NCBI GenBank assembly: GCA_015257795.3
Contig: CP072208.2
Location: 1 to 32,000, forward strand
Origin: Candidatus Nanogingivalaceae bacterium
GTDB lineage: Bacteria > Patescibacteriota > Saccharimonadia > Saccharimonadales > Saccharimonadaceae
DNA length: 32,000 bases
Direction: 5' to 3'
Shown: positions 1,360 through 27,494 of the stretch, piece by piece
Numbering within the stretch: position 1 is the stretch's first letter
Layout of the letters: the number at the start of each line of letters is the position of its first letter
Program-made: the position numbers and the translations under genes
Notes under the pieces: generated by a model
Databases searched by the model: none
What the model saw: the letters and a program-made list of their open reading frames with translations, nothing else
What the model was told of the DNA's origin: nothing

Positions 1360-1420
1360 AGTCTAAATGGCTCTATTTTTATATCTGTTAATTTGACATT
1401 TTCTATTTTTAGTTTTATAA

Positions 1421-1452
1421 AAAGCGAACAGCTTTATTTGTTCGCTTTTGAC
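1421..1452 (+). terminator. Intrinsic terminator after dnaA
   Basis: Stem aaagcgaaca (1421-1430) pairs with tgttcgcttt (1439-1448) and is followed by a T-rich run. Confidence 0.6.
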
Positions 1453-1730
1453 TTTTTCTAATTATATTTTATTCATATAAATACTAAGAGCACTTCTCTA
1501 TTTGCGAAAATATATTTTTTATTTTATTGCTATGTTTGACAATATGCTGCTATTGTTTTAATAAAGTGTTGAAAGCTTGTGGAAAAATCAAAGATTTCGT
1601 TTGGAAAACCTGTAAAAATCTTGCAGAAAAAAATGGCAAAGTTTTGCACAAGTTTCTTGTGGATAATTTCCAATTTTCAAAATTGTGAAAAAGTATTTAA
1701 TTTATGCACAGTTTTTCAAAAAGTTTTGCT

Positions 1731-1759
1731 TTGATTTTCCACACAAAAAATGGTATAAT
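1731..1759 (+). promoter_or_regulatory. dnaN promoter (TTGATT-N17-TATAAT with TGG extended -10)
   Basis: -35 TTGATT at 1731-1736, 17-nt spacer, TGGTATAAT at 1751-1759. A DnaA box (1735-1743) overlaps the -35/spacer and two tandem boxes lie in the leader. Confidence 0.6.
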
Positions 1760-1846
1760 TTAAGTAGTGAATAAGTGGTTTTCCACAGTTTCCACAACAC
1801 CTATTATTATAACTACTACTTTTTAAGAAAAAGGAATTTGAATTTT

Positions 1847-2941: not shown

Positions 2942-2948
2942 GAATTGA

Positions 2949-9300: not shown

Positions 9301-9486
9301 TGAGCTTGTTGCCATAGACGAATTTTCAGCGCTCGCTAAATCTGACGGATTATAGCCGTCATCACCGCGAATAACCTCAGCGTTTCCCCATCTACTTTTT
9401 GCTTTTTCTAACGCAGATTGGTTTGTGTCGCTTAAGTCGCTAAAATCAAGATTTTCATCTTGGTCAAAATCTCTTGCTGCTCCCAT
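6367..9486 (-). CDS. Large polytopic membrane protein with C-terminal M23 (LytM-type) metallopeptidase domain
   Basis: 1039 aa. Hydrophilic N-terminus, then TM segments (GGVIGGVGALIFAGTF; ICGVYALVTMGW; VTTAVVGAAVVVASLVACATTACVAEVLGSIAWGAAVGVALSLALTVL). GGGSGSSSSSSGG linker, then M23 motifs HYGIDFG and GEHLHFE. Confidence 0.85.
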   Translation of the reverse strand: MGAARDFDQDENLDFSDLSDTNQSALEKAKSRWGNAEVIRGDDGYNPSDLASAENSSMATSSSSGISDNETLMKDATTTQSSGWRNNVSGGGTHKSRNAASKGGAKNRAMSFFKGKGAFATTGGVIGGVGALIFAGTFNMVSLMSNHITEMITEKLNSASISMNKRSVKVMKLKVKGANCTAGIVCRMSRVTNRNIKNLREAGFKVELEDGDGLFGRKKIKSLTYTKAGQEITINNTSSDIKNVLTKNPEVREAFKRGYNGRFASFLDKKWRKLKGWFSFKKWRKNNKGKTEEEIDEDMKKTANDHSKEEDADGKSRKGDPDPEDGKVEKGDKGTSAVKDKLKSNSDKLKKGFKNARQKSIAAANTIKGVGQTLSGPLNAIDKICGVYALVTMGWSVAKVAKVEVFAQFGLSFLSMSSKIRSGDATQEEVTAQGNSLMGIANKKDSDEKKDSEQSDSNTSRLKEAFAFFADSAEENSPGKSATDSQGWRAVAYGDRVSKLDNSAKDYQVGITGALAKIMDTFTSGTLGWVVRKGCKVATVTTAVVGAAVVVASLVACATTACVAEVLGSIAWGAAVGVALSLALTVLKDKAMDEISLHVAQGLTGTILNDSTKGENFGNAIMSGSAAMMSKNTMAGSGGVLTKSQAVAFYHETERQIAENAEEIRKTRSPFDPNTRHTFLGSIVSNMLPYSKQIASISGFLPSIIGGAQRSFAAITPGAHAANDANFIANMDTCEDKSIKDTGAATDIFCNVYTGIDMKIADKDTDEVINELKSSGDLKEKDNSGDEDTDDMLSTVEMGPELKKYEKYCFNRKKPIGASEDDDDDNFGAICNSDKNPKANLYALFLTDVRVEEGMNEDFKPDEGGGSGSSSSSSGGVDPDLAKLSGEFVWPVKGVKVNGDSIEGVGPDQDFGPRSFFDGFSSTHYGIDFGSATFGSAAPVYAAADGEVVYGGDAETVGWGAGSHYVAIKHNGDIYTTYSHMRSHSVHKGDKVKKGQQIGVTGAEGNASGEHLHFETKKGTGVPGEKGAFNPMDLIKGNT

Positions 9487-9554: not shown

Positions 9555-11417
9555 CTAGAATAATTCATTCGGGTCTGCATACCCATTTGTCATTAAGTTA
9601 TCACTCTGGCGATTCTTAGAATTATTTGGACTTGTTGAAATTAACTGGTGTTCAGTATCACTGGCAATAATTTGAATATGAACGTGATTCTGTCCAGCGA
9701 AGAATAGACCTTGCCCAACTGGGAAGTTTGCAAGACGTTTACGCTCTTCTTCAGTTAATTTAAAGACATCACTCAAAACATCAACTGCGCTTGAAGATTG
9801 CTTTAGAAGTAGCTGCATTGAGCTGTTCGAAACAATCGCACGACCCATTTTTGAACCCATAAAGTCTTCAACGTCCTGAGAAATTGTAGTAAGACCAAGG
9901 TAGTATTTTCGGGCGCGTTTTGCCAAACTGAACAAAAAGTTTGCGGAATCGTCGTATTTCATTAACTGCCAAGCCTCATCAACGATCAGCATACGTTTTT
10001 TCTGTTCCGAACGCACAATATTCCAAATGTGTGAAAGCACAATATACATCGCAACTGGGCGAAGTTCATCTTCAAGGTCGCGAATATTAAATACCACCAT
10101 TGAGTTATTAATATCAATATTTGATTGTTGCGAGAAAATCCCCGCGAATGTTCCGGTGGTATATTTGCGAAGGCGTTGTGCTAAACTTGGACCGCTTCCA
10201 TCCATATGAACCAAAGTATCATAAAGATTATGGATTGTTGGCGGTGTTGAATTATGCGTTAGCGGATCAGAAGTAATTCCAGCGCGCGCATAAGTATCGA
10301 TAATCGCTTGATCAAGATCAGCTTCTTCACTCGGCGAAAGACCAATTGATTGCCCTGCACTCGTTCCGCCAAGCATTAAGCGAAATAGGCCGTGAAGTGT
10401 AACGATATTTGCGCGAAGTGCGTTGTCGGCTTCCTCGGCATCAATAACGTGTGGCAAATCGAACGGATTAATTCGCACATCAGAGTTCAAACTTAAGCGA
10501 ATGTAGCTTCCGCCAACCGCATCACTTAATTTTTGGTATTCGTTTTCTGGGTCGATAATTAAAACTTCGGCGCCCATCATCATTGTTCGAAGGGCCTCAA
10601 GCTTCACAGTGAAAGATTTACCGGCACCAGATTTCGCAAAGACCACCATGTTAGCGTTTTCAAGTGTGAAACGGTCGAAAATAACAAGTCCGTTATTGTG
10701 CATATTAACACCATAAAGAACACCATTTTCCTGCGTAAGATCGGCAGAAGTAAATGGGAATGAGGTTGAAATTGCACCCGTGTTCATGTTTCGGCGAATC
10801 TGTAATTGATCTGAAAGTTGAGGAATTGTTGCTTTCAAGCCCTGCTCTTGTTGGCTTGATGCCACTTTCGAAAATAGCATTTGCTGTCCGAGCATTGTTT
10901 CGATTTTACTTCGTACGAAGTTTAATTCATCAAGGCTATCAGCATAAATCGTTAAATAAAGTCCAAAACGGAAGAATTTTTCCGCTCCAAGCTGGAGTTG
11001 ATCTCGAAGCTCTTCGGCGTCATTTAAGGCAGCCTCGAGCGCTGGGTCACGAGTTTTACCCTTTTCATTATTAATCGAAAGGTCGGCTTCAAGCTGGGTA
11101 ACTTTTCGGCGGAGGTTTTTCATCACGATTTCGGTTTCAACTGGATAAATAAACATTGAAACATCCAAAACTTCATCAGCATTCAAGATTGGTGAAGCCC
11201 ATCCGGTGTAAAGCTGGCGTGGGTAGCCATAAACGTAGATTGTCTGGCCGTATTTTGTGCCTAAGCGAAAATAGCTCGAGTGAAATTCGAGGCTTGATGG
11301 CGCGATAAGGTCGCGTAAAGTGTTAATACCAGTTAAAAATGCTTGTTCAACCTCAGCCTGCTCTTGGGCGCGTTGCTGCGCGGCAATATCAACTGCGTCT
11401 TTTTTCTTCTTCCCCAT
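9555..11417 (-). CDS. virB4: VirB4-family T4SS ATPase (PrgJ/TcpF-like)
   Basis: 620 aa. Walker A FAKSGAGKSF, Walker B MLIVDEAWQL, LGLTTISQDVEDF motif. N-terminal IAPSSLEF...YGYPRQL region is typical of Gram-positive VirB4 homologs. The ATG lies 2 nt after the upstream stop, with GGAGGA inside the upstream gene end. Confidence 0.92.
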   Translation of the reverse strand: MGKKKKDAVDIAAQQRAQEQAEVEQAFLTGINTLRDLIAPSSLEFHSSYFRLGTKYGQTIYVYGYPRQLYTGWASPILNADEVLDVSMFIYPVETEIVMKNLRRKVTQLEADLSINNEKGKTRDPALEAALNDAEELRDQLQLGAEKFFRFGLYLTIYADSLDELNFVRSKIETMLGQQMLFSKVASSQQEQGLKATIPQLSDQLQIRRNMNTGAISTSFPFTSADLTQENGVLYGVNMHNNGLVIFDRFTLENANMVVFAKSGAGKSFTVKLEALRTMMMGAEVLIIDPENEYQKLSDAVGGSYIRLSLNSDVRINPFDLPHVIDAEEADNALRANIVTLHGLFRLMLGGTSAGQSIGLSPSEEADLDQAIIDTYARAGITSDPLTHNSTPPTIHNLYDTLVHMDGSGPSLAQRLRKYTTGTFAGIFSQQSNIDINNSMVVFNIRDLEDELRPVAMYIVLSHIWNIVRSEQKKRMLIVDEAWQLMKYDDSANFLFSLAKRARKYYLGLTTISQDVEDFMGSKMGRAIVSNSSMQLLLKQSSSAVDVLSDVFKLTEEERKRLANFPVGQGLFFAGQNHVHIQIIASDTEHQLISTSPNNSKNRQSDNLMTNGYADPNELF

Positions 11418-11419
11418 AA

Positions 11420-12205
11420 TTAAAATCCTCCTTGATTTGGATTATCACCCTCTGCTTTTCGAACAAATAAGCTTGCTGTATCACGGAAATCACCCAAAGG
11501 CTCATAAACTGCCGTATCTGGGTTATAAACATTGTAATAAAGCTCACCAAGTTCTTTCGTGCTTAACTGCACGGATTTAATTCCCATTTGATAAAGTCCA
11601 CCAGTGATTGAGTCAACGCGTTTTTTAATTTCCTCGCGCGCTTTATCCCAGGTATTTCGATCAATTTTCGAAATTTGTGCACTTGGTTTTGCGAATATTT
11701 TTCCAAAAAATCCCTTGGCTGAATCTTTAAGATTATTTAGATCACCAGTTGGGTGGTAAGGAATAACAATAAAGAAAGATTTATCCATAATATTCGCACT
11801 GCGACTCAAACTATCGATAAAGTTAATATAATCTTCCATTAAATCACCAAGAAGCATATTATCTTGAGCCATTTGAATATCGGCAAGTTTGTTTAGATAT
11901 GGCTCGATATCAACGCGTTGCGAACGAACCAAAATTTGAATTGGAAAAGTTAGCGAGTTTAAAAAGCTCTGGTAAGAATACTCCACTCCCTCACGTTCAC
12001 GAGAACTCATAAGGTCGAAGTTGATTGACTTACAAGCAATAACTGCTCGAAAGCTGCCATCGCGCATCACAACCATTCCTTCACGAAGTTCGGCAATTTC
12101 TAGCGAATTTTGTGTTGAAGTTGGGTTAGCTGGTGCATTTGAATTTGTTTTATTCTCGGCTTGGTTTGCATCCATTGCTGGATTTTTTTGATTCATGTTA
12201 TTCAT
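11420..12205 (-). CDS. Soluble T4SS-operon protein translationally coupled to VirB4 (possible detached VirB4 N-terminal-like module)
   Basis: 261 aa with no TM. Disordered N/Q/T-rich N-terminus, then a globular part (LREGMVVMRDGSFRAVIACKSINFDLMSSREREGV...FLNSLTFPIQILVRSQRVDIEPYL). Sits between the PrgI-like and VirB4 genes with 2-3 nt gaps. Function not recognised with certainty. Confidence 0.75.
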   Translation of the reverse strand: MNNMNQKNPAMDANQAENKTNSNAPANPTSTQNSLEIAELREGMVVMRDGSFRAVIACKSINFDLMSSREREGVEYSYQSFLNSLTFPIQILVRSQRVDIEPYLNKLADIQMAQDNMLLGDLMEDYINFIDSLSRSANIMDKSFFIVIPYHPTGDLNNLKDSAKGFFGKIFAKPSAQISKIDRNTWDKAREEIKKRVDSITGGLYQMGIKSVQLSTKELGELYYNVYNPDTAVYEPLGDFRDTASLFVRKAEGDNPNQGGF

Positions 12206-12208: not shown

Positions 12209-13687
12209 TTACCTCAATGATATTAATACTTCATTTTCTTCCAGGTCGACCTCTTTTGAATTATCCTGGGTAATCTTTTCTTTATTTGCTATTTTATTCG
12301 CTTGGCGTGCAAGCGTTTCAACCGAAAGGTCCTTTCCTTCTGAAACTAGCCTTTTCATTTCAGCACTAATTTCTTTAGCAGAGGTTCGACCGGTTGATTG
12401 TTTTTTATTAATGAACGGATTATCCTCTGGGTTTGTTGAAATTCTCGCCTTTGGATCGCGCTTTTCTCTTTCGTCTGTTGTATTATTAAATTCTCGAATT
12501 CTCTCAATATCTTCACGGAGTCCTTCAAGTTCATCTTTTTGGCTTTGATAGCTTTCTGGACTATTCGGTGCTGGATACGGATGTTGTTGCGGTTGATTTG
12601 GATAAGGGTTCTCAGTAAAGTTTGAAAGTGGTTGTGGCGCAGGTTGTTGGATATTGCGCGGTGGGTTTTGTTGCCAGTTGGGTGAAATAACAGTTTGATT
12701 CATTGAATCTGGGTAAGGGTTGTAATGAAGCTTGATATTATTAAATTCGTTATTATTTTCAGGATTTGGTTGAGGCGGATTTTGCCAGTTTTGGCTTGGA
12801 GTGTAGCTATTAGAATTATTCTGTCCCGAATTCCAATTTTGCGTTGGGTTTTGCGGATAGGTATTCGTAAAAGTATTGTTAGGAGTTTTATTTTGACTAA
12901 AATTCATGCGATATTGGTCTTGCTGATTTTGTGAAAATGCTGTAGGCTGAGTTTGTACTGGGGCTGATACTGGGGCTTGAATTGAGACATCTTCAAATTT
13001 AACATTATCTGAGCCAATGTATTTATTTTTAGGATCGAAATAATAAGTTTGGTCTTGAATGTTTTCCGAACTTTCATTCGTAAACTGTGCGAGATTTCGC
13101 GCCATATCAAGGTTTTGCATAATTTGTTGTTTACGTCGCTGGTCGTGTTGGCTTAAAAGATTATCAACATTTGAAGATACGCGGGAATTTTCAAACATAT
13201 CTTCCGCTGAACGTGCCTCATTAGAGTATTCCTCTCGAACGGTCGTGTTTACGGGTGCAATTGAGTGCTTAATAGCCCAACCTTCAGTGTCAACAATATC
13301 CGCCAAATAACTAAGCCGTCTTGACGCTTCATTTTGTGAGATATCTTTAGTTAAATGTTCATCTTTTTTAATTGGCGCAGAAATTTGAATCAAATGTTCA
13401 ACACCATCTGGCTGCCAATAACGCTTATTAGGTTTAATATAAAAAGAAACAATTGCAGCAAGATAAGTTTCCATTGGTTGATCTTTTCGCAGAGGCAATG
13501 CGAGCGCTCCAAAGAAAATGATGAAAGGCATTGGTATAATTACTAATCCAGGAAAAATTCCCCATAGAAAAATATCCAGTGCAATACAGCCTGCAACAAT
13601 AATCAAGTAAATAAACTGCCGAAAATTAAACGGCCCAAGCAATTTGTCATCAGCCTCAACGTCTTGAGGAACTTTATAAACGCTCAT
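12209..13687 (-). CDS. PrgI/VirB3-like membrane protein fused to a long Q/N/P-rich low-complexity region
   Basis: 492 aa. The N-terminus YKVPQDVEADDKLLGPFNFRQFIYLIIVAGCIAL plus a second TM matches the PrgI (VirB3-like) family pattern. Residues ~237-383 are Q/N/P-rich (NPYP, QNW repeats). The C-terminus is charged and helical. Confidence 0.8.
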   Translation of the reverse strand: MSVYKVPQDVEADDKLLGPFNFRQFIYLIIVAGCIALDIFLWGIFPGLVIIPMPFIIFFGALALPLRKDQPMETYLAAIVSFYIKPNKRYWQPDGVEHLIQISAPIKKDEHLTKDISQNEASRRLSYLADIVDTEGWAIKHSIAPVNTTVREEYSNEARSAEDMFENSRVSSNVDNLLSQHDQRRKQQIMQNLDMARNLAQFTNESSENIQDQTYYFDPKNKYIGSDNVKFEDVSIQAPVSAPVQTQPTAFSQNQQDQYRMNFSQNKTPNNTFTNTYPQNPTQNWNSGQNNSNSYTPSQNWQNPPQPNPENNNEFNNIKLHYNPYPDSMNQTVISPNWQQNPPRNIQQPAPQPLSNFTENPYPNQPQQHPYPAPNSPESYQSQKDELEGLREDIERIREFNNTTDEREKRDPKARISTNPEDNPFINKKQSTGRTSAKEISAEMKRLVSEGKDLSVETLARQANKIANKEKITQDNSKEVDLEENEVLISLR

Positions 13688-13725
13688 TCTCTATTTTTGC
13701 CCACTTCTCCTTTATTATTAGTACA

Positions 13726-13734
13726 ATTTTAACA
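13726..13734 (-). promoter_or_regulatory. Extended -10 element (TGTTAAAAT) upstream of the T4SS operon
   Basis: The minus strand reads TGTTAAAAT about 32 nt upstream of the ATG at 13687. No good -35 element. Confidence 0.4.
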
Positions 13735-13817
13735 TATTTTTTCTAAAAAATAAAGTAAAAAAAATAGACAAAGTCGTGAATGCTGACCTGACACCTAGCA
13801 GTTTAGCTATTTCAATA

Positions 13818-13846
13818 TTGACAAGTCAGACATTTTTTGATATACT
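13818..13846 (+). promoter_or_regulatory. Promoter-like element TTGACA-N17-TATACT, divergent from the T4SS operon
   Basis: TTGACA at 13818-13823, exactly 17 nt of spacer, TATACT at 13841-13846. Confidence 0.45.
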
Positions 13847-13852
13847 TTTGAA

Positions 13853-14140
13853 AGTTATTATTTATTTTTGGGGATTTATTTACCCCAAAAAAAATAAAAA
13901 GATTTCGTCGTTTTCATATGACGAATGTCTTTTGTACATTTTCGAAAATTTAGAATTTTCTGAGAATTGAAAATACAATAAATAGTAACTCAAACAGAAA
14001 AAACCACTTCCGAAAACGGAAGCAGTTCTTTAACCGAGTAGTTCCATAAACTAGGCCAATAGTTTATGGAATGAATCACATCTCCACAGTGAGATCAATC
14101 ATTTATTGCGGTTACGCTCGTTCTTGCGTAGCCGTTTTTT
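13853..14140 (+). ncRNA. Candidate structured small RNA (~290 nt, family unknown)
   Basis: Bounded by the promoter at 13818-13846 and an intrinsic terminator at 14108-14140. Contains an 8-bp hairpin at 13866-13890, a 6-bp hairpin at 14007-14022 and a perfect 12-bp hairpin at 14042-14071. No convincing ORF or RBS lies inside. Confidence 0.3.
14108..14140 (+). terminator. Intrinsic terminator (plus strand)
   Basis: 9-bp stem, cggttacgc (14109-14117) pairing with gcgtagccg (14126-14134) with one G-U pair, then TTTTTT at 14135-14140. Confidence 0.6.
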
Positions 14141-14269
14141 ATTATCTTTATCTGGCGGTTCTTTATTTGAGTTTTTTATAAACAATTCAATCAGAACTTC
14201 CAAAATTGGATAAGCTTTTTCAAAAACACTTATCAAAAGCAAATCAATATTTATATTTGACAAATAATA

Positions 14270-14304
14270 GAAAAAAGACGGATCATTTTTTAAACCGTCT
14301 TTTT
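14270..14304 (-). terminator. Intrinsic terminator after the VirB6-like gene
   Basis: Stem agacgg (14276-14281) pairs with ccgtct (14295-14300), flanked by A-run and T-run. On the minus strand the hairpin is followed by TTTTTT. Confidence 0.65.
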
Positions 14305-14374
14305 AATTCACCCATAAGATATATGAACTCAGATTACTTTTAGACTACTGAGCGTTAAACTGTCTAAACTCTGT

Positions 14375-17077
14375 TTATTTTTTATTCTTAATATTGGTTG
14401 GTTTCCAGTTTGAACCAAGAATGGAGTCGTAGATTGCCTTATTACTCTTTTCGACCTCTTTAAGCATTTTGTGGATTTCAGATCCCTGAACTGCATTAAG
14501 CTTACTGTATTCAGCGGGGTTCTCGTTAATTGTTTTAACACTCTTGAGTGTTGACTTGAGTGTTTCATCCGACATTGCTGAAAGTGCTTTTTTATCCCAG
14601 ATGATTTTCATTGCATCATTTGAAGCTTTTATAATTTTCTCATCTGAAACATTCTTGGTGTAGTTATCATGAATAGCATTTATAACTTCTTTTGAAGTCA
14701 TGCCGTTTACTGCGATATTTTCTAAGGCCGCTCCGCCAATAAACTGAAGATCGTCTTTTTTGGTTTTCTTGAAAGCTTCAACCAAATCGCTACGATTGGC
14801 ATTTAATTCGCTACCAAGTGAAGTTTTACCGAGCGAATCTAGAGCGGTTTCGAGATTTGATGAACCCATGAATTTCTCGGCCGTTGCAGCGCGCAAATTC
14901 TTAGTAATTTCGAAATCGATTCCATCTTTTTGAATACTTTCACCCATATTTTTTGAGAAGATTTGGTTATAATCGTTGCCTGAAAAGTTGAGTGATTTTG
15001 TAAGATTTGCGAGTGATTCGACCTCTTCTTTGTTTTCTTTCGAAGCGGCCGCCATAGCACTAGCAAGTGCTGAGACTTTTCCAGATTCGCCACGAACACC
15101 AGATGCGGTATTTAATAGGTCGTTATTGTAGCGCAAATTGTTTGCCATTGCATTATTGAGTGCAATATTGTTATTTCTTTCAGCTTGCTTAAATGAAGTT
15201 GTTCTGTTTGCATCATCGATGAATTTAAGTGCCTGTGAGCCAAATTTTCCATTGAGAGTTCTTAGAGTATCATCGCTAAGATCAACAATTCCTCTAATCT
15301 TACCACTCGGATCTTTATCAAGAGTTGAACTGAGTAATTCAGATTTAATTTGTGAAACTGCCGCGCCAGATTGGGCGTTGGCACGATTCAAGGCCTCGTT
15401 AGCGAGCATTTCTTGGTATTGAGTATTTGTTCCCAAAATATGTTGCTTGCGAGCTTCGTAATATCTGTTCGAAAACGCATTTGAACCTTCTGGCATATTT
15501 TGAACGGCTTCTAAATCAGAATTCTCTTTATTCGCAAAGCGTTCTTTTTGATATGTGTCAGCAATAGATTTTGCTGAACCGATTCTTCTTGATCGGTTGT
15601 AATTCATTTGATTTAAGCGAGAACCAAGTGATGCTGGATTTTTTGCAATTCCCCGATTTCGGTACATTTCTTGATTTTCTCCAAGGAATTTCTTGGCTCG
15701 GTCAATTGGTCCTTTATTTGGATTGTTGATAATTCCAGCAAATTTACCAAGTAGACCACCACTAATTCGCATAATTGTTGGTGTAATTGCAAGTGGTACA
15801 ATCTGAACAACTGCACCTAAAAGGAAGACTAAAAAGCTTCCGTTTGAGCTAGCAATAATTGTAGTTCCAACGAGCTGTGCTCCACCAAATAGTAGGGATA
15901 TAATTGGATACATGACAAGCATTGTCGTGAATAAATCTTTCCATTTCTGGAACCATTTTTCGGTATTTGGTAGGATGTTTGCGGCGAAAGCTAAAGGTGC
16001 TAAGAAAACTAAAACAATAATAATTGCTTGACGAGCAGCTAGAATTACTAAGCCAACTACGGCTGAATAGATAACGGCAACCAAAGCGCCAAGTATCATC
16101 ATTACTGCTGCACCAGTACTTCCTGCAGTTGCTACAGATACTGTGTATGCTCCATACGCTACAACACCACTTCCACTTAAAACAGCTGCAGTCATATTTG
16201 ACCAGTCTAAACCTGAAACCTTAATCTTATTACCGCCACTATTGAAAATGCTGTTTCGAATTCCCACGAGAAGATTTTGTGCTTGGGCGCCTAAAATATT
16301 CGAAATGTCCACCAAAATTGCACAAATATAATAAGAGATATTAATTAAGATTGCTGCTACGATTAATTTTGGTAATATTTTTTTTACACCATAATTACTA
16401 ATTCCAAACCCAGTCACCTGTGAATAAATGACAAAAACAAAACCAATCACGAAAAAGATATTCGCGACATTTCGCATGTAATCCCAGACCTGGAAGAGAC
16501 CTGATTTATGGGAAGTATAAAGTGGTTGAACTCGCAAAAAAGTTTGAAGCCATTCATAAATTCCATCCATCCATTTCGAGATAGTGTTTGCAACCATACA
16601 AACCATCCAGCCACCACCGCCTTCAACGCTACAGTTTGATGTTTCTTCATCTTTTGAGGTGCCGTCAACTTTAACATCTTGCGCATCACCATCTTGTTTT
16701 AGATTTCCTAAGGCGCTCACGTCAAAAGTGTAAATTTTTCCACTAGAGGCATCGTTTTCGTCATCTAAAGCAATAACTGTGGTTTTTTGATTGTCTGCGC
16801 TGACAGATGAATTTTCTGCATAGATTTTTTTTGAACGAATTGAATCAGGATATTTCGAAGTATCAGAAACTTTTGTATAAACTTTTCCGTTGTATTTTAT
16901 ACCATTTTTTGAAGAATCTGTCCATTGAGCACCATCGAGCGCGTAAGCCAGGCTCGAACTAAAAAAGCCCAAGATTGTGACTACTGTTATAGTCGCGATA
17001 AGAAAAACTTTTCGAAAATCTTGAGTTTTTGCTTTTCTGAACCTCGTCAAGATCTGCATATGACCTGATTTTATCAT
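14375..17077 (-). CDS. VirB6/TrbL-like polytopic T4SS membrane protein with a ~460-aa C-terminal hydrophilic extension
   Basis: 900 aa. N-terminal signal/anchor (FLIATITVVTILGFFSSSLAYA), a ~150-aa ectodomain, then at least 6 TM helices between residues ~195-440 (for example IFFVIGFVFVIYSQV, LIVAAILINISYYICAILV, AIIIVLVFLAPLAFAANIL). A long helical, N/K/S-rich tail follows. The family call rests on topology and context. Confidence 0.6.
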   Translation of the reverse strand: MIKSGHMQILTRFRKAKTQDFRKVFLIATITVVTILGFFSSSLAYALDGAQWTDSSKNGIKYNGKVYTKVSDTSKYPDSIRSKKIYAENSSVSADNQKTTVIALDDENDASSGKIYTFDVSALGNLKQDGDAQDVKVDGTSKDEETSNCSVEGGGGWMVCMVANTISKWMDGIYEWLQTFLRVQPLYTSHKSGLFQVWDYMRNVANIFFVIGFVFVIYSQVTGFGISNYGVKKILPKLIVAAILINISYYICAILVDISNILGAQAQNLLVGIRNSIFNSGGNKIKVSGLDWSNMTAAVLSGSGVVAYGAYTVSVATAGSTGAAVMMILGALVAVIYSAVVGLVILAARQAIIIVLVFLAPLAFAANILPNTEKWFQKWKDLFTTMLVMYPIISLLFGGAQLVGTTIIASSNGSFLVFLLGAVVQIVPLAITPTIMRISGGLLGKFAGIINNPNKGPIDRAKKFLGENQEMYRNRGIAKNPASLGSRLNQMNYNRSRRIGSAKSIADTYQKERFANKENSDLEAVQNMPEGSNAFSNRYYEARKQHILGTNTQYQEMLANEALNRANAQSGAAVSQIKSELLSSTLDKDPSGKIRGIVDLSDDTLRTLNGKFGSQALKFIDDANRTTSFKQAERNNNIALNNAMANNLRYNNDLLNTASGVRGESGKVSALASAMAAASKENKEEVESLANLTKSLNFSGNDYNQIFSKNMGESIQKDGIDFEITKNLRAATAEKFMGSSNLETALDSLGKTSLGSELNANRSDLVEAFKKTKKDDLQFIGGAALENIAVNGMTSKEVINAIHDNYTKNVSDEKIIKASNDAMKIIWDKKALSAMSDETLKSTLKSVKTINENPAEYSKLNAVQGSEIHKMLKEVEKSNKAIYDSILGSNWKPTNIKNKK

Positions 17078-17164: not shown

Positions 17165-17794
17165 ATGATTAAAAAAATAAAAAAAATAATTACAATTGGG
17201 CTAGTTTTGACGAGCTTTTTTGTAGCTTTTCAAACGTTTTTTGTATTCAGCAACGATGCATATGCGAAGCTACAGTATATAGATGGTAATGGTAATGCGG
17301 TCGATGCCCCTAAATCATCAAATAAGAAGAAGAAGGATAATAAAAAGAACAATTCAGGCTCTAATTCAGCACCAGCGCCTGCCCCTGCGCCCGCTCCTGC
17401 AAATTCAGGTTCAACATCTGGATCGAGCTCTAGTTCAAATTCCGGCTCCAGCTCTTCCAGCTCAAGTGATGGAGACGCGGGTGAAAACAAAGAAAATGAA
17501 GACGAAAAGGAGCCGATCGACAATACTCCGGAAGAAGTTAAAACAGCAATTCTTCCAGAAAGTTGGAAAATTGAAGATATTCTCAACATGATTCTGCTAG
17601 TTGTAACAACTGGAGTTGGAATTGCGGCCGTCGGTGCGATCGTTTATGCAGGTGTATTATATATAACTGCGCGAGATAATGCTGGGCAAGTTTCAAAAGC
17701 TAAAACAATGATCATGAATACGGTTATTGGTGTAGTTGCGTACATATTAATGTGGGCATTCCTACAATGGATTATTCCAGGAGGAGTCTTCTAA
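17165..17794 (+). CDS. VirB2/TrbC-like T4SS pilin paralog 1 (long Lys/Ser/Ala-Pro-rich ectodomain)
   Basis: 209 aa. Signal peptide ending AYA, low-complexity KKKKDNKKNN...APAPAPAPAPA...SSSSS region, and a C-terminal two-helix hairpin with the shared motif (IVYAGVLYITARDNAGQVSKAKTMIMNTVIGVVAYIL). Confidence 0.75.
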   Translation: MIKKIKKIITIGLVLTSFFVAFQTFFVFSNDAYAKLQYIDGNGNAVDAPKSSNKKKKDNKKNNSGSNSAPAPAPAPAPANSGSTSGSSSSSNSGSSSSSSSDGDAGENKENEDEKEPIDNTPEEVKTAILPESWKIEDILNMILLVVTTGVGIAAVGAIVYAGVLYITARDNAGQVSKAKTMIMNTVIGVVAYILMWAFLQWIIPGGVF

Positions 17795-18234
17795 TGAAAA
17801 AAATTTTATTGATGTTATCTATTATGCTTATGCCGATGATGTATTTTTCACAAAGCGCTTATGCAGACTCGGGATGTACTGGAAATGAAACTTTCTTTGG
17901 CCTTCCTGCTTGGTATCGCGGATTAGTTACTTCTGGCGAAAACGGCTGTCAGATTAAAGAGATTGGCCCTAATGATGCAAAGAATAAACACGAGATTACG
18001 ATAGAACAATTTGTTTGGACGGTCGTAGCAAATGTGATTGATATGGGATTTCGAATTGCAGGGTTGGTAGCGATGGCATTCATTATTTACGCGGGATATC
18101 AATATATGATTGCTGCTGGTGATCCAGGAATGCTTGCAAACGCAAAAAGGTCATTGACTAACGCGGTAGTTGGTCTAGTGATTGCAATTTTAGCATCAAC
18201 AATAGTAACATTTGTATTAGGAATTTTAGGATAA
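17794..18234 (+). CDS. VirB2/TrbC-like T4SS pilin paralog 2
   Basis: The ORF track starts at 17752. The ATG at 17794 (MKKILLML...) overlaps the upstream stop as TAATG and follows AGGAGG. 146 aa, signal peptide ending AYA, Cys pair in the mature N-terminus, two-helix core IIYAGYQYMIAAGDPGMLANAKRSLTNAVVGLVIAIL. Confidence 0.8.
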   Translation: MKKILLMLSIMLMPMMYFSQSAYADSGCTGNETFFGLPAWYRGLVTSGENGCQIKEIGPNDAKNKHEITIEQFVWTVVANVIDMGFRIAGLVAMAFIIYAGYQYMIAAGDPGMLANAKRSLTNAVVGLVIAILASTIVTFVLGILG

Positions 18235-18599
18235 TGGAACAATATATATTTTTAGCAGAAGAAAATGGATCTGGAGATAAGGGCGAAAGCACTTCAGATG
18301 GTTCAATAAATTTCGATAAATCCAAGGTATTTAATAACGTTGACACTTCAAATAAAGACAAAGCTAATGATGCTTCCCTTCAGAATGCGTTTAATACGGC
18401 ATTTATCTGGGCTGGAATAATTTGCGTTATCGTGATTGTTGTTGCGGGTTTGACGTTTGTTACCTCCTCTGGTAACCCTGGCCGAATTTCGAAAGCTAAA
18501 TCTGCGATAGTGTATGCATCTTTCGGAATTGGGATAATTGTCTCAGCAGCTTTAATTGTAAATCTCATTATTGGTGGGCTATTGAAAGGAAGTATTTAG
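18234..18599 (+). CDS. VirB2/TrbC-like T4SS pilin paralog 3 (no signal peptide)
   Basis: 121 aa. Start overlaps the upstream stop (TAATG). Acidic hydrophilic N-terminus instead of a signal peptide. Two-helix core VVAGLTFVTSSGNPGRISKAKSAIVYASFGIGIIV. Confidence 0.7.
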   Translation: MEQYIFLAEENGSGDKGESTSDGSINFDKSKVFNNVDTSNKDKANDASLQNAFNTAFIWAGIICVIVIVVAGLTFVTSSGNPGRISKAKSAIVYASFGIGIIVSAALIVNLIIGGLLKGSI

Positions 18600-19190
18600 A
18601 TGAAAAAGATTATTCTATTAAGTAGTATCTTATTCGCGTTCATGATGCCGACAAATGCATTTGCGGCGACCCCATTCGGTGCCTGTAAAAATGTTGTTTC
18701 CGGAAATACAGCTGTTTGCTCTGGAGATGCGAAAGACGCTAAAGAAATTGCCAAAAATATAATTTCGGTTCTTCTTTGGATTGTAGGAATGGCCTCGATA
18801 ATCGTAATTGTCTATTCAGGAATTACTTTTGTTACATCAGCAGGAAATCCAAGTCAAATCACACGAGCTAAAACAATGTTGCTGTACGCTGTAGTTGGTC
18901 TGGTAGTTTCGATTTTGGCATATGCAATTGTTAACTTTATCGTTGGAAGCGCGGGCGGAAGCAAAGGTGGATCCAGTGGTAGCTCCTCATCTTCTAGCTC
19001 AAGCTCTGGCTCTGGTGGTAATTCATCTAGCGGTTCGGGATCTTCTAATAAAAATTCAAATAATAATTCGCCAAATACTAAGTCTGATAATTCAAGCGGT
19101 AGCCAAGGCAACGATGGCAGACCTTCCTTCCCAGAACTTAACTCTGGAAAAAATGAAACAGGTGATAAAAGTATTTGGACAAAAATATAA
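18600..19190 (+). CDS. VirB2/TrbC-like T4SS pilin paralog 4 (Ser/Gly/Asn-rich C-terminal tail)
   Basis: 196 aa. The ATG abuts the upstream TAG. Signal peptide ending AFA, Cys pair, core VIVYSGITFVTSAGNPSQITRAKTMLLYAVVGLVVSILAYAIVNFIVG, then a ~75-aa S/G/N-rich tail. Confidence 0.8.
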   Translation: MKKIILLSSILFAFMMPTNAFAATPFGACKNVVSGNTAVCSGDAKDAKEIAKNIISVLLWIVGMASIIVIVYSGITFVTSAGNPSQITRAKTMLLYAVVGLVVSILAYAIVNFIVGSAGGSKGGSSGSSSSSSSSSGSGGNSSSGSGSSNKNSNNNSPNTKSDNSSGSQGNDGRPSFPELNSGKNETGDKSIWTKI

Positions 19191-19209
19191 AATAATTTAA
19201 GGAGAATAA

Positions 19210-19593
19210 ATGAAGAAAATTTTATTAGCATTCGGTTTAATTTTTGCTTTTGCTACCCCTATTGTTATGACATCGAATGTTCTAGATAATCAAGCCCATG
19301 CTGAGGGCGCTGCAGATTTAATTCAAAAAGGTGCGGACTCTACTGGTCAGAAAGATTCTCGATCGGCTGGTGACCTTGCTAAAGATTTCGTTAATATTAT
19401 GCTTTTTGCGGTTGGTATCTTAGCGGTTATCATGCTTATCTGGGGTGGTATCCGATATGTATTGTCGGGCGGAGATAGTGGTGCTGTTAGTTCAGCTAAG
19501 AAGACAATCCTTTATGCAGTAGTTGGCTTAATTGTCGCTATCTTAGCTTATGCTATCGTCAATTTTGTCATTACCACTATTGCAAAAAAATAA
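19210..19593 (+). CDS. VirB2/TrbC-like T4SS pilin paralog 5
   Basis: 127 aa. AAGGAGA RBS, signal peptide, core MLIWGGIRYVLSGGDSGAVSSAKKTILYAVVGLIVAILAYAIVNFV. The core closely resembles that of paralog 6. Confidence 0.85.
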   Translation: MKKILLAFGLIFAFATPIVMTSNVLDNQAHAEGAADLIQKGADSTGQKDSRSAGDLAKDFVNIMLFAVGILAVIMLIWGGIRYVLSGGDSGAVSSAKKTILYAVVGLIVAILAYAIVNFVITTIAKK

Positions 19594-19607
19594 AATTTTG
19601 GTATAAT
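19580..19607 (+). promoter_or_regulatory. Promoter of pilin paralog 6 (TTGCAA-N16-TATAAT with TGG extended -10)
   Basis: TTGCAA at 19580-19585 and TGGTATAAT at 19599-19607. The 16-mer TGGTATAATTTAAGTA is identical to the one in the dnaN promoter (1751-1766). Confidence 0.6.
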
Positions 19608-19649
19608 TTAAGTATAAAATAACTTTTTAAGAAAGGAAATTAATTTAAA

Positions 19650-20063
19650 ATGAAAAATTTTGTAAAAACAGCTTTATTAGCTGCTGTAACAGTGTTCGCT
19701 GTTGGTGCTACAACATTTGCGACTCCAGCATATGCTGCCGATTGTAAAGTTACTGGTGGTCTAAAAGCTGCCGATAGCTGTGCTAAAGGTGTTCAAGAAG
19801 AAAATGGTGGACCAACAAGCTTGTTTGACGGAGACTCACCAATTTTCACAACAGCAATCAACATTATGCTCTTCATTATTGGTATTCTTAGCGTGATTAT
19901 GCTTATCTATGGTGGTATCCGATATGTTCTTTCAAGTGGTGATTCTGGTGCTGTGACAAATGCTAAAAATACAATTATGTATGCTATTATCGGTCTTGTT
20001 ATCGCTATCTTGGCTTACGCTATTGTTAACTTCGTTATTGGATCAATTACAAATAAGAACTAA
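19650..20063 (+). CDS. VirB2/TrbC-like T4SS pilin paralog 6 (own promoter and terminator; candidate major subunit)
   Basis: 137 aa. GAAAGGAAA RBS, signal peptide ending AYA, Cys pair (ADCKVTGGLKAADSC), core MLIYGGIRYVLSSGDSGAVTNAKNTIMYAIIGLVIAILAYAIVNFVIG. Confidence 0.88.
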   Translation: MKNFVKTALLAAVTVFAVGATTFATPAYAADCKVTGGLKAADSCAKGVQEENGGPTSLFDGDSPIFTTAINIMLFIIGILSVIMLIYGGIRYVLSSGDSGAVTNAKNTIMYAIIGLVIAILAYAIVNFVIGSITNKN

Positions 20064-20078
20064 AGTTAATAAAAATAA

Positions 20079-20110
20079 AAAGAGACTTTCTAATGAGGTC
20101 TCTTTTTATA
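20079..20110 (+). terminator. Intrinsic terminator after the pilin array
   Basis: Stem aaagagac (20079-20086) pairs with gtctcttt (20098-20105), followed by a T-run. Confidence 0.7.
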
Positions 20111-21421: not shown

Positions 21422-21511
21422 GGAGAGGTGGCCGAGTGGTTGAAGGCACCGGTCTTGAAAACCGGCATGCGGTAAAACGTATCGAGGGTTCGAATCCCTC
21501 CTTCTCCGCCA
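21422..21511 (+). tRNA. tRNA-Ser (anticodon UGA), CCA encoded
   Basis: Acceptor GGAGAGG/CTTCTCC, anticodon stem ccggt/accgg with loop cTTGAaa, long variable arm, T-arm gaggg-ttcgaat-ccctc, terminal GCCA. Confidence 0.93.
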
Positions 21512-22343: not shown

Positions 22344-22420
22344 GCACCTGTAGCTCAGCTGGATAGAGCGTTGGCTTGCGGAGCCAAAGGTCGTAAGTTC
22401 GAATCTTGCCAGGTGTACCA
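22344..22420 (+). tRNA. tRNA-Arg with anticodon GCG, CCA encoded
   Basis: Cloverleaf folded by hand: acceptor GCACCTG/CAGGTGT, D-arm gctc-agctggata-gagc (A20 present), anticodon stem ttggc/gccaa with loop tTGCGga, T-arm gtaag-ttcgaat-cttgc, ACCA end. The backbone resembles Bacillus-type tRNA-Arg(ACG) apart from G34. Confidence 0.85.
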
Positions 22421-24035: not shown

Positions 24036-24125
24036 GGAGAGGTGGCCGAGTGGTTGAAGGCGCACGACTCGAAATCGTGTATGCGGGCAACCGTATCGGG
24101 GGTTCGAATCCCCCCTTCTCCGCCA
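24036..24125 (+). tRNA. tRNA-Ser (anticodon CGA), CCA encoded
   Basis: Same acceptor and D-arm as the tRNA at 21422. Anticodon stem cacga/tcgtg with loop cTCGAaa, long variable arm, T-arm ggggg-ttcgaat-ccccc, GCCA end. Confidence 0.93.
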
Positions 24126-24671: not shown

Positions 24672-27494
24672 CTATTGTTTAGTTATCTCTTCATACATCT
24701 CAAATAATCGTGCAACTGTTTCACTTTCCGTTAACCAAGTTTTCTTCCTGTCTACGATTTTTGTCATATCATAAGCTTCCATAACTGCTTTATCGTTAGC
24801 CTGGTGAGCTCGTCTAAGTTCTTTTGGCATAGTTAACTCATCATAAAGATCTGCTAATGAGCTATCAGGGTACAGTGCACGCGCATCGAGAATAGCCTTA
24901 GCAGTTTTAGAAATCTTCTCTTTTTGCTCATCTGTCACTTCTGGCCAAGGGAAATTGTTGTAAACTATCTTCGCAGAATAACGATAACGCATTTCTAGTC
25001 TACCAGCAACAGTACGCATCCAAGCCATGTGAACGTTGGAAGTTAGAATACCGAATTCATAAAGTGTAGCATTGGGAATAATTTGTACGGCATCACTTGA
25101 AATTATTTGACCATCGATAAAACCAATCGGTATATATCTTCTGTTTTCTGAAGATACCCTTGGAATTAGTAAATAATCATTATCATTATGTCTTATCTCT
25201 TGGAATTCCATGGCTCTTTCAGCACTATCTTGAGTTTGTTTTTTAGGACTACTTTGTCGAAATTCTTTAACTAATTGTATCCTACTGATAATTGGAGGGA
25301 TGCTTCGTAAAGTACTAGGATTCTGACCAGCTAACCATAAACAGTATCTTTCTTTATTGTTTATGAATTCCGAAGCTCCATATACCCGTCGTATCATCGA
25401 TTCGGCTTGTGGGTATGTCTTAATAAGTTCGTCCTTTTCTTGCAATGTTAAGAAAAGGTACCCTCCGTCAGTTGGCTTGCTTCCATAAACCATCGGAGAA
25501 ACTTCACATATTGCTTTGGTTCTACTATCGATGAAAATTAAGTCCCCATTGATTAAATATGGATTAATTTGCTTAGCAATAATTTTTGTCTTATCATCAT
25601 AAATAACTTTGTTTTTGGGATTATCTGACACTGAAAATCCAATGATTACACAATGAACTGCTGCTTTATTTTTAGCTTCACTGTTCCATTTAAATGTTCT
25701 GTATGCGAAGTCTATATGGATTCCAAATCGTTCATAGAGTGGTTTCCATACACTGGCTACTTGCTCTCCTTGTGTAATTGAGTTAGTTGATACTAAAGCA
25801 GTTCGGATTGATGTGTTCTGCATGATCTGGCTCGCCTTAAAATACCAAGCTGAAACAAAGTCAATTTTGCCAGCTGTTTTATATGGTTTACCGTTTTCAT
25901 CAACATAAACACTCAATAAATCAGCTTTTTGCTTAGGAGATTGGAGTGAATACCCTAAAAAGGGTGGATTACCAATTATATAGTTCAATTTATCTTTAGG
26001 CACTACTGTTTCCCAGCCAATTTCTAAAGCATTACCTTCAACAATATTGGTATAAGACTTGAGCGGTAGAAAATCGATATTTGTATATACGATATCTGCG
26101 GTTTCTTCAAGCATTTGACTTTCTGCAATCCAAAGCGCTGTTTTAGCCACAGAAACTGCAAAGTCATTAATCTCAATGCCATAAAATTGATTCAGTTGGA
26201 CTTTAACAAGCTCTTGCCCGACATCAAGCGCAACGGCATCTCCCATATAGAGTCTAATGGCTTCATTTTCTAAACGTCGAAGAGAGATATATGTCTCAGT
26301 TAAGAAATTCCCAGAACCACAAGCTGGGTCAAAGAAAGTCAGACTCGCTAGTTTTGATTGGAACTGCTTGGCTTTTCGTTCAACGATTTTAGGTTGCTTA
26401 AATTGACGAATCTCATTCAATTCATCTTTTAACTCATCTAAGAAGAGTGGATCGATAACTTTATGGATATTTTCAATAGAGGTATAGTGCATACCACCGC
26501 TACGACGTGTTTCGGGGTTGAGAGTTGATTCAAATACTGCTCCAAAAATAGTAGGGCTGATTTCTGACCAGTCGAAACTAGACGAAGCATGTTCCAAAAT
26601 TAACTCACGTAGTTCATCGGTAAAATTAGGGATTTCCAGATTATTCTCTGCAAACATCCCACCATTCACATAAGGGAAAGCGTTCAATTCACTATCAAGG
26701 TAAGGATCACGCGCATCGATTGGCGTGTCTAAAACAGCAAAAAGATCGACTAGCCCACGACGAAAGTCACGGCTTCCAAAACGAACCATGTAGTCATGAA
26801 ACATCGTTTTGTGTCCAAAAATACCAGCATCTTCAGCATATAGACAAAATACTAGACGCACGATAAGCTGATTAATAGCATGAAGGCTTTCGGGGCTATT
26901 TGGATTAATGTATTGCTTAAGAAGGCTTTCATAAATCTTACCGACAATCTCACCAGCTTCAATAGAAACCTTCATCTCACGCTCTAAGTGTTCATTTGTC
27001 TTGTCAATTAAAAATTCTAAACGATAGGCTTCTTTATCTAAATCAGCAAGTTTAATGACTTTAGGTTCGCCGTTTGGTTGCTCCATGTCATAGACATAGA
27101 ACTCTTTGAAATTACAAGTCACAATCCAACGGGGGCGTTTAGAATATGGAAGATTGGCTGAATAGCGTTTTGCTTGTTGGAAAGGCGTAAGATAAGTATC
27201 ATCGGACTGTTTTATAGCTTTATTAAGGTCTTTATTCACCCCTTTTTGCTCAATCAAAACTTTTGTTTTTTCTATATACCCATCTATAAAACTAGTATGG
27301 TCAAGCATCACTTTATCTTCAAATTTTATATACTCACTTGGGTTTTCAATCCCATAAACAGATTGAAGTAAATCTAACCAGAAAGACTGGCTATCTTGCC
27401 TTTCGTTCCCTCTATTTCCCCAGCGTTCAATAAATGCTTTAGCTTGCTTTTTTTGTTCCCGGATATTATTCACTTTGTGCTCTCCAACTACCAT
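24672..27494 (-). CDS. MmeI-family type IIL (IIG) single-chain restriction endonuclease / N6-adenine DNA methyltransferase
   Basis: 940 aa. N-terminal region matches MmeI-like enzymes (AKAFIERWGNRGNERQDSQSFWLDLLQSVYGI) and carries a D-X10-EQK nuclease motif (FIDGYIEKTKVLIEQK). SAM motif I FFDPACGSGNFL, catalytic motif IV IIGNPPFLGY, and a large C-terminal target-recognition region. Confidence 0.88.
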   Translation of the reverse strand: MVVGEHKVNNIREQKKQAKAFIERWGNRGNERQDSQSFWLDLLQSVYGIENPSEYIKFEDKVMLDHTSFIDGYIEKTKVLIEQKGVNKDLNKAIKQSDDTYLTPFQQAKRYSANLPYSKRPRWIVTCNFKEFYVYDMEQPNGEPKVIKLADLDKEAYRLEFLIDKTNEHLEREMKVSIEAGEIVGKIYESLLKQYINPNSPESLHAINQLIVRLVFCLYAEDAGIFGHKTMFHDYMVRFGSRDFRRGLVDLFAVLDTPIDARDPYLDSELNAFPYVNGGMFAENNLEIPNFTDELRELILEHASSSFDWSEISPTIFGAVFESTLNPETRRSGGMHYTSIENIHKVIDPLFLDELKDELNEIRQFKQPKIVERKAKQFQSKLASLTFFDPACGSGNFLTETYISLRRLENEAIRLYMGDAVALDVGQELVKVQLNQFYGIEINDFAVSVAKTALWIAESQMLEETADIVYTNIDFLPLKSYTNIVEGNALEIGWETVVPKDKLNYIIGNPPFLGYSLQSPKQKADLLSVYVDENGKPYKTAGKIDFVSAWYFKASQIMQNTSIRTALVSTNSITQGEQVASVWKPLYERFGIHIDFAYRTFKWNSEAKNKAAVHCVIIGFSVSDNPKNKVIYDDKTKIIAKQINPYLINGDLIFIDSRTKAICEVSPMVYGSKPTDGGYLFLTLQEKDELIKTYPQAESMIRRVYGASEFINNKERYCLWLAGQNPSTLRSIPPIISRIQLVKEFRQSSPKKQTQDSAERAMEFQEIRHNDNDYLLIPRVSSENRRYIPIGFIDGQIISSDAVQIIPNATLYEFGILTSNVHMAWMRTVAGRLEMRYRYSAKIVYNNFPWPEVTDEQKEKISKTAKAILDARALYPDSSLADLYDELTMPKELRRAHQANDKAVMEAYDMTKIVDRKKTWLTESETVARLFEMYEEITKQ

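Follow-up and report, generated by a model that had tools for sequence, protein, structure and literature searches.

Six tandem PF18895 pilin genes beside an origin-proximal type IV secretion system of a Saccharibacterium from the human mouth

The pilin array and its family

The stretch of DNA analysed here, referred to as the window, comprises positions 1 to 32,000 of the forward strand of contig CP072208.2 (GenBank assembly GCA_015257795.3), assigned to a Candidatus Nanogingivalaceae bacterium. Its main subject is an array of six tandem open reading frames (ORFs), P1 to P6, which fill positions 17165-20063 of the plus strand, as placed in an earlier note made from the sequence of this window. 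The six genes are diverged pilin paralogs of the family PF18895, and a secretion system of type IV (T4SS) lies next to them. This neighbouring cluster is a monoderm-type (MPF_FATA-like), chromosomal, origin-proximal T4SS of a human oral Saccharibacterium, and the array is divergent from its VirB6-like gene.

All six ORFs are read on the plus strand. P1 (17165-17794) encodes a protein of 209 amino acids with a signal peptide (site AYA/K), no cysteine, and an insert composed of a lysine-rich segment, an (AP)5 repeat and a poly-serine stretch. The insert is lineage-expanded, since the orthologs of sister species reach only 149-160 amino acids. P2 (17794-18234; 146 amino acids counted from the ATG) has a signal peptide (AYA/D) and a cysteine pair. 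P3 (18234-18599; 121 amino acids) has neither a signal peptide nor a cysteine; an acidic and polar N-terminal tail precedes its hairpin, an N-terminal hydrophobic segment is absent, and the sequence permits no longer upstream ORF. P4 (18600-19190; 196 amino acids) combines a signal peptide (AFA/A) and a cysteine pair with a C-terminal tail of about 75 amino acids, rich in serine, glycine and asparagine, which is restricted to this oral clade. P5 (19210-19593; 127 amino acids) has a signal peptide (AHA/E), no cysteine, and its own Shine-Dalgarno sequence, AAGGAG. P6 (19650-20063; 137 amino acids), with a signal peptide (AYA/A) and a cysteine pair, is the most conserved paralog. The cysteine pairs of P2, P4 and P6, the P1 insert, the P4 tail and the missing signal peptide of P3 had all been described in the earlier note, and each of them is seen.

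The same note had claimed a common C-terminal two-helix core for the six small ORFs, and this is borne out by the coordinates and by the alignment. The core consists of a helix, the motif G-x-x-Y/F, a short polar loop with A-K at its end, and a second helix. Only a few core residues are strictly invariant (G, G, A-K and G), identity to P1 within the array is 25-35%, and the ending AYAIVNF is common to P4, P5 and P6. The cores of P5 and P6 are identical at 49 of 72 residues, 26 of which are encoded by different codons. Because of these differing codons and a synonymous divergence (dS) of about 1.9, the duplication that produced P5 and P6 can be regarded as old, as had been proposed. In an AlphaFold2 model of P6, the helices span residues 65-94 and 99-134. 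The helix-loop-helix core has a pLDDT of 82-88, and the signal peptide and the ectodomain are modelled with low confidence.

Membership of a T4SS pilin family, for which the earlier note had suggested profile searches, is supported by hidden Markov models (HMMs). Against PF18895 (T4SS_pilin; cutoff 26.6 bits), P2 scores 49.7, P3 42.8, P4 36.1, P5 47 and P6 43.2 bits (E 4e-13 to 7e-9). P1 remains just under the cutoff at 24.3 bits (E 3e-5), and its membership is backed by NF045849 (E 1e-7) and by its position-1 orthologs. All six proteins also score against the NCBIfam model NF045849 ("Mbov_0395 family pilin-like conjugal transfer protein"), with 26.8-33.2 bits (E 3e-8 to 3e-6). Its equivalog cutoff of 40 bits is reached by none of them, and they are consequently related proteins, not equivalogs. 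The signal peptides of five of the six proteins would also suit small effectors that are secreted by Sec and passed to the host. The corresponding array in TM7x was formerly annotated in this way, and a transcriptome paper refers to its "putative effector genes", of which three are induced when the symbiosis is stable. However, a pair of long hydrophobic helices that matches the pilin family stands at the end of every copy, a signal peptide is missing from one copy, and the array has been re-annotated as pilins in later papers. An effector role is therefore very improbable.

The stop and start codons of the first four genes, read in the sequence, meet at TAATG (P1/P2), TAATG (P2/P3) and TAGATG (P3/P4), as stated in the earlier note. 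Judging from these junctions, P1 to P4 are co-transcribed and translationally coupled, and this coupling implies co-expression. P5 and P6 are separated by a 56-bp spacer. A sequence scan identifies an extended -10 promoter for P6 on the plus strand at 19580-19607 (TTGCAA-16-TGgTATAAT), with its -35 element inside the end of P5. An intrinsic terminator hairpin follows P6 at 20075-20109 on the same strand (-16 kcal/mol, z = -3.96, none of 200 shuffled sequences being as stable). Both signals had been assigned to P6 before, and the promoter elements are kept in the P5-P6 spacer of species with saturated synonymous sites.

The start of P1 (17128-17167) has no recognisable Shine-Dalgarno sequence, and a TATAAT element lies just 2 nucleotides 5' of the ATG. 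Consequently, the P1 mRNA might be leaderless or have a very short leader. The motif TTGCTT-17-TAAAGT is also found immediately upstream of P1 in this interval. The exact P1 protein is present in 692 blocks of a metagenome collection, including sample HMPC12-1, apparently from the Human Microbiome Project. Database proteins nearest to those of the window bear the names Candidatus Saccharimonas or Nanogingivalis.

Conservation of the six positions

The comparison across Saccharibacteria was anchored on an alignment of P6 orthologs. VirB4 homologs were not used for this purpose, as only 98%-identical proteins were found among the matches listed. Eighty loci were fetched from species-representative genomes, and the cores of the window proteins supplied the HMM with which they were scanned. 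Where the flanking sequence is long enough, almost all Saccharibacterial loci carry 5-8 tandem pilins. The earlier note had considered that such genes might be found away from T4SS genes in related genomes; instead, a VirB6-like gene lies divergently upstream in 48 of 49 related arrays. The positional comparison was made on 23 non-redundant six-gene arrays, namely those of 22 related genomes and that of the window. For positions 1 to 6, the best cross-genome match has the same place in its own array in 23, 23, 20, 17, 14 and 23 of the 23 arrays, respectively. The layout is similarly regular, with median junctions from 1-2 to 5-6 of -4, -1, -1, +14 and +73 bp. The P5-P6 spacer measures 56-167 bp in all 23 arrays and is invariant within the species.

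The individual positions also carry traits of their own. In 21 of the 23 arrays, the protein at position 3 lacks an N-terminal hydrophobic segment, and in all 23 it lacks cysteine. Two cysteines are present at positions 2 and 4 in 22 arrays each, at position 6 in 17 and at position 1 in 15; in the window, P1 has no cysteine and carries the expanded low-complexity insert in place of the usual pair. The C-terminal tail at position 4 has a median length of 4 amino acids and a maximum of 81.

Selection on the array was assessed between and within species by the alignment and dN/dS (ratio of nonsynonymous to synonymous divergence) analysis that the earlier note had suggested. Against five sister species, at saturated dS, dN/dS is 0.07-0.28 for all six pilins, which denotes purifying selection. 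Among seven sequences of the same species (the window and six contigs), 2.5-5.4% of the sites in the array are variable, compared with 6.7% in VirB6 and 9.3% in ComF, and the array contains no indels. No diversifying selection or strain hypervariability was found among the five sister species and the seven same-species sequences. Judged from these comparisons, the array is ancient and ordered, its positions are orthologous across the class, and every copy is constrained. Positional orthology across the class argues against a recent lineage-specific amplification.

Arrays of this kind have been published previously. Arrays of 4-6 VirB2-like genes were described by McLean 2018 (bioRxiv 10.1101/258137), the array of TM7x being equivalent. 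Quinonero-Coronel et al. 2025 (PMC12102498) reported 441 arrays from 383 assemblies, each with 2-11 VirB2-like genes, with a mean identity of 25% and a location near dnaA. The window array resembles these arrays, which are abundant in Saccharimonadia, in its tandem VirB2-like genes near virB4 and in a T4SS near dnaA. Multi-pilin arrays are the norm in Saccharibacteria (PMC10633639, PMC12102498, PMC12857230, bioRxiv 10.1101/258137). The earlier statement that six pilins are highly unusual consequently holds in relation to classical diderm T4SSs and fails within this group.

The closest published counterpart is found in Southlakia epibionticum ML1, in which SEML1_0014-0019 are six PF18895 pilins stated to be essential (Wang et al. 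2023, Cell; PMC10633639). In the transposon sequencing table of that paper, each of the six is listed as GD/ES/ES, and a solitary seventh pilin, SEML1_0024, as NE. Both organisms have six tandem PF18895 genes divergent from a VirB6-like gene, in an origin-proximal T4SS near dnaA, and in both the array is followed by a minus-strand Hsp20 gene and then a ComF-like gene. The last two pilin genes measure 384 and 417 bp in Southlakia and 384 and 414 bp in the window. However, the window belongs to another species, coordinates and gene lengths differ, and the long P1 insert without a cysteine pair and the P4 tail of about 75 amino acids set it apart. Southlakia also carries an NTF2-like gene and a second VirB6-like gene, whereas the window has one VirB6-like gene and a 690-bp gap free of ORFs. 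Judged from family, gene order and the sizes of the last two genes, the window array is the ortholog of the essential genes SEML1_0014-0019. Since the array has already been published in kind and in the same gene arrangement, its detection is a correct rediscovery and not a new system. Given this orthology and the purifying selection, each pilin gene would be expected to be needed for epibiotic growth in the window organism as well.

In the one Saccharibacterium tested, Southlakia, epibiotic growth requires the T4SS together with its pilin array, and the T4SS is the leading candidate for the means by which ultrasmall Saccharibacterial parasites tap their hosts. The Saccharibacterial T4SS has no recognisable relaxase, and its role has been described as completely unknown (PMC11665869). 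The present analysis adds to this picture the positional orthology, the position-specific traits, the purifying selection, the codon bias of P5 and P6, the conserved P6 promoter, and a gene order in common with Bacillota. The leads that it leaves are the specialised-subunit hypothesis with P6 as the major subunit, the Bacillota link, and a set of fused poly-pilins.

The ectodomains differ sharply between paralogs, and the lengths of the P1 insert and the P4 tail vary between sister species. Such differences would be expected if the six proteins were interchangeable alternative major pilins that vary the exposed surface, either for matching host strains or for evading hosts or phages, as has been proposed for the VirB2 proteins of Bartonella and Anaplasma. 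A possibility of this type, host-range versatility, was also raised for the arrays by Quinonero-Coronel et al. 2025 (PMC12102498). However, orthology of the positions extends over the whole class, Southlakia requires each of the six genes, dN/dS is low for every copy, and neither hypervariability nor indel polymorphism is found within the species. In addition, P1 to P4 are translationally coupled and hence co-expressed, and the low-complexity coding segments contain only trivial short tandem or slippage repeats, none of them suited to switching. Interchangeable variants are thus quite improbable, and unlike the versatility proposal, the present data favour fixed, specialised positions.

Several diverged virB2 copies per T4SS are likewise found in Bartonella, Anaplasma and Rickettsiales. 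These multiple copies are thought to serve antigenic or host-surface variation. They belong, however, to diderm MPF_T systems, whereas the window array consists of ancient copies with orthologous positions, each of which is required in a relative. The trait of the Bartonella and Anaplasma type, lineage-specific amplification with raised strain variability, is not displayed by the window array.

Additional pilin genes occur outside the array in other Saccharibacteria. Solitary P6-like pilins are present in related genomes (loci L050, L051, L053, L056, L057, L063, L070, L071, L076 and L077), and sister species have a P6-like copy of 155 amino acids about 22 kb downstream, where the corresponding site would lie beyond the window. 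Many other Saccharibacteria have a minus-strand pilin 1.5-4 kb downstream (for example L011 5837-6298 and L012 13450-13866), like the non-essential SEML1_0024. No solitary extra copy is present within the window.

Candidate roles of the six subunits

The six proteins are likely to be VirB2-like pilins of a monoderm-type T4SS that act as specialised, non-redundant subunits, with P6, and perhaps P5, abundant. The specialisation is suggested by the positional orthology, the conserved position-specific traits and the purifying selection described above. In the proposed mechanism, five of the six proteins would be inserted by the Sec pathway and cleaved after A-x-A, and P3 would be inserted without a leader. 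Each protein would form a two-helix hairpin whose loop, which bears K/R, lies in the cytoplasm, while its two ends are external. The subunits would then be pulled out of the membrane by VirB4 and the VirB6-like platform and stacked into a pilus or a short wall-crossing conduit directed toward the actinobacterial host. P6, perhaps together with P5, would be the abundant structural subunit. P1 to P4 would be low-abundance, non-redundant subunits with functions in initiation, at the tip or as adaptors, bearing the variable ectodomains in a system that has no recognisable VirB5 or adhesin. Of the two roles considered in the earlier note, one major subunit with minor subunits fits the data better, and host-specificity variants are disfavoured.

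The proposal that P6, possibly with P5, is the bulk subunit and that P1 to P4 are minor and specialised draws on the separate conserved promoter, the terminator, the spacer kept before P6 where junctions further upstream overlap, the high conservation of P6, and codon bias. The effective number of codons is 38.2 for P5, 40.6 for P6 and 38.2 for Hsp20, compared with 49-61 for P1 to P4, so that P5 and P6 have the strongest bias among the pilins, on a measure that is noisy for genes of 120-200 codons. P6 is 88-93% identical across the five sister species, with a dN/dS of about 0.1 and a reduced dS of 0.6-0.75, like that of Hsp20, and 50-60% identical across the class.

Besides the noise in the codon statistic, several results weigh against the proposed roles. 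The first concerns the relationship to classical VirB2. No window protein attains the cutoff of the TrbC/VirB2 family (PF04956; 27.9 bits), with P3 at 20.7 bits, P2 at 20.6 bits (E 5e-4) and P4 at 16.1 bits. This sub-threshold similarity indicates a distant relationship rather than membership. Among the 138 members of the 23 arrays, PF18895 matches all 138, TrbC/VirB2 47 (E < 0.01, best 3.7e-7), DUF6112 32 and DUF4134 3. A search of the Protein Data Bank (PDB) with Foldseek, using full-length and core-only models, returned nothing at E < 1, and the top matches, all with E > 1, were helical hairpins of chemoreceptors, ATP synthase c and CnrX, with no T4SS pilin among them. The hairpin fold is generic, and the Foldseek comparison with the TraA, VirB2 and TrwL pilins cannot discriminate, because a bare helical hairpin is too simple. 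The profile of P6 orthologs found nothing relevant among PDB sequences. An hhalign comparison of the window cores with PrgF, the VirB2-like protein of the Enterococcus plasmid pCF10, gave E 0.065 and a probability below 1%, and PrgF has no PF18895 match. The number of tandem genes also varies: it is five in roughly ten of the fetched arrays and four, seven or eight in others, which shows that six is not obligatory. Finally, no T4SS pilus has been reported on Saccharibacteria, and cryo-electron tomography of N. lyticus assigns the observed filaments to type IV pili (PMC12206443).

The last result bears directly on another explanation, in which the proteins are pilin-like but form no extracellular filament. 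They would instead be accessory or channel subunits in the membrane part of a VirB4/VirB6 complex, or build a very short wall stalk. The lack of a T4SS filament in tomograms of Saccharibacteria (PMC12206443) and the generic hairpin fold are compatible with this explanation, as is the description of related proteins of Mycoplasma integrative and conjugative elements as VirB3-like; moreover, a pilus has been visualised for no Gram-positive T4SS (10.64898/2025.12.18.695078). On the other hand, the proteins have sequence kinship with the PF18895 and TrbC pilins, and ectodomains with disulfides and long extracellular tails are difficult to explain in purely membrane-embedded subunits. For a Gram-positive system, the labelling of loop residues in PrgF also points to removal of the subunit from the membrane (10.64898/2025.12.18.695078). 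Overall, this explanation without a filament is unlikely, and specialised pilin subunits are preferred.

The likenesses to the diderm pilins VirB2, TrbC and TraA (PF04956) are those of architecture: small size, a leader peptide, two hydrophobic helices with a short charged loop, and encoding within a T4SS. However, diderm VirB2 usually comes as one gene, and usually together with the tip protein VirB5, which the window system lacks. The mature window pilins also have larger ectodomains than VirB2, TrbC and TraA, 40-60 amino acids in length and often with a disulfide. Neither VirB5 nor a PrgB-type adhesin can be recognised in the T4SS of the window.

A more specific version of the specialised-subunit reading describes a fixed heteromeric machine and is put forward tentatively, as a possible but rather doubtful refinement. 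P1 to P4, perhaps P1 to P5, would make up a defined layer for initiation, or at the tip, that sits on the VirB6-like platform and replaces the missing VirB5 and adhesin; their ectodomains, disulfide-bonded or of low complexity, would touch the wall of the actinobacterial host. Below this layer, P6 would polymerise as a wall-spanning conduit that takes material from the host. The fused poly-pilins of the candidate phyla radiation (CPR) would be covalent versions of the layer, and the position-3 type without a signal peptide would be an evolutionary link to them. The further idea that five minor pilins make up one pentameric layer is weakened by the many relatives with five-, seven- or eight-gene arrays.

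The secretion system, its relatives and the remaining window

The T4SS genes upstream of the array are all encoded on the minus strand. The nearest (14375-17077) encodes a VirB6-like extended polytopic membrane protein of 900 amino acids, with a weak TrbL match and a precomputed PF19590 (TrbL_3) assignment; it is presumed to be the assembly platform. The next (12209-13687) encodes a PrgI-domain (VirB3-like) protein of 492 amino acids (PF12666, E 7e-10), in which the domain covers about the first 90 residues; the remainder is a low-complexity region rich in Q, N and P with a charged tail at the end. It is followed by a TrsD-like protein of 261 amino acids (11420-12205; NF041427 TrsD, E 5e-8, and VirB4 N-terminal models), which resembles a separate VirB4 N-terminal domain. 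The VirB4 ATPase, the signature protein of the T4SS (9555-11417; 620 amino acids), has TraG P-loop and AAA_10 matches and is named VirB4-like of the CD1110 family. Two cell-wall genes complete the cluster: a large protein of 1039 amino acids with a C-terminal M23 peptidoglycan endopeptidase domain (6367-9486), and a VirB1/PrgK-like cell-wall hydrolase of 586 amino acids with phage-tail lysozyme, GDSL and C39-like domains (4598-6358). VirB4 is 98% identical in amino acids to that of sister species at saturated dS, with a dN/dS of about 0.01-0.02, and 76-90% identical across the class. In contrast to this highly conserved protein, identity of the VirB6-like protein falls to 30-41%.

The family is also found outside Saccharibacteria. 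A tblastn search of P6 against plasmids gave matches on replicons of Bacillota and Actinomycetota. The Pontibacillus megaplasmid NZ_CP062975 (7749-16183) has two tandem pilins, each with a signal peptide and a cysteine pair. The first reaches 47.4 bits on PF18895 and the second 23.8 bits, below the cutoff of 26.6, with E 2e-15 against the Saccharibacterial pilin HMM. After the pilins, the order VirB6-like, PrgI/TraL-like, TrsD-like, VirB4 and M23 peptidase is that of the window. The Pontibacillus VirB4 is 37% identical to the window VirB4 and the TrsD-like counterparts are 29% identical; the counterpart of the PrgI-domain protein has 116 amino acids. In Priestia megaterium NZ_CP045273 (7782-12008), one PF18895 pilin (41.8 bits) adjoins a VirB4. 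The pilins of both organisms have a signal peptide and a cysteine pair and match the Saccharibacterial pilin HMM at 5e-18 to 1e-14. The Bacillota loci differ from the chromosomal six-gene array in that they belong to megaplasmids of Firmicutes with a free-living habit and have no more than two tandem copies, or a single one. The PF18895 pilins of Bacillota show that the family is not confined to the CPR. Taken together, the gene order and profile matches suggest that the pilin is native to this type of monoderm T4SS and not borrowed from diderm systems. They may thereby bear on the co-option of pilins from diderm systems, which Quinonero-Coronel et al. 2025 (PMC12102498) left open, without giving a direction of transfer.

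A functional parallel is provided by Gram-positive conjugation. According to a December 2025 preprint by ter Beek et al. (10.64898/2025.12.18.695078), Gram-positive conjugative T4SSs depend on the VirB2-like protein PrgF. In pCF10 it is essential for conjugation and has been modelled on a VirB6 pentamer. In the literature, VirB6 pentamers are the site of assembly of VirB2-like proteins, whose charged loop lines the lumen. PrgF(B2) of pCF10 (sequence NC_006827) is, like the window pilins, a two-transmembrane hairpin, encoded just upstream of genes for a VirB6-like protein, PrgI, VirB4 (CD1110 family) and a lysozyme. PrgK of pCF10 is annotated as a phage tail tip lysozyme, and the window hydrolase at 4598-6358 likewise has a phage-tail lysozyme domain. 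However, PrgF has 75 amino acids, no signal peptide and no ectodomain, and is present as a single functional copy, unlike the window pilins.

A profile of the six window proteins retrieved 77,855 representatives of 50%-identity clusters at E <= 1e-3. The top matches (P0241, P0243, P0245 and P0248) are fused poly-pilins, with 2-17 hairpin units in one polypeptide. They have one signal peptide and a cysteine-pair ectodomain, linkers of about 25-35 amino acids and no internal signal peptides. One example of 1775 amino acids contains 17 units, and one poly-pilin clusters with the Candidatus Andersenbacteria protein PIT98131.1.

The window opens exactly at the start codon of dnaA, which is followed by dnaN and recF (1-3986). 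Consequently, the T4SS begins 4-5 kb from the presumed replication origin, as in other Patescibacteria, and the system of the pilin array lies three genes from dnaA. Between the PrgI-domain gene and the VirB6-like gene, an interval of about 690 bp (13688-14374) contains no ORF over 64 amino acids and no Rfam match, and it carries indels among same-species contigs. Because the corresponding region of Southlakia holds the additional NTF2-like and second VirB6-like genes, this interval may be a decayed gene. Downstream of the array lie the Hsp20 gene and then the ComF-like gene. An Rfam search of the window yielded three tRNA genes only, none in the array or in the 690-bp gap; they are interspersed downstream of the array at 21422-21508, 22344-22417 and 24036-24122. 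Further downstream, positions 24672-27494 encode a complete restriction-modification enzyme of the MmeI family (type IIL) with all five MmeI Pfam domains.

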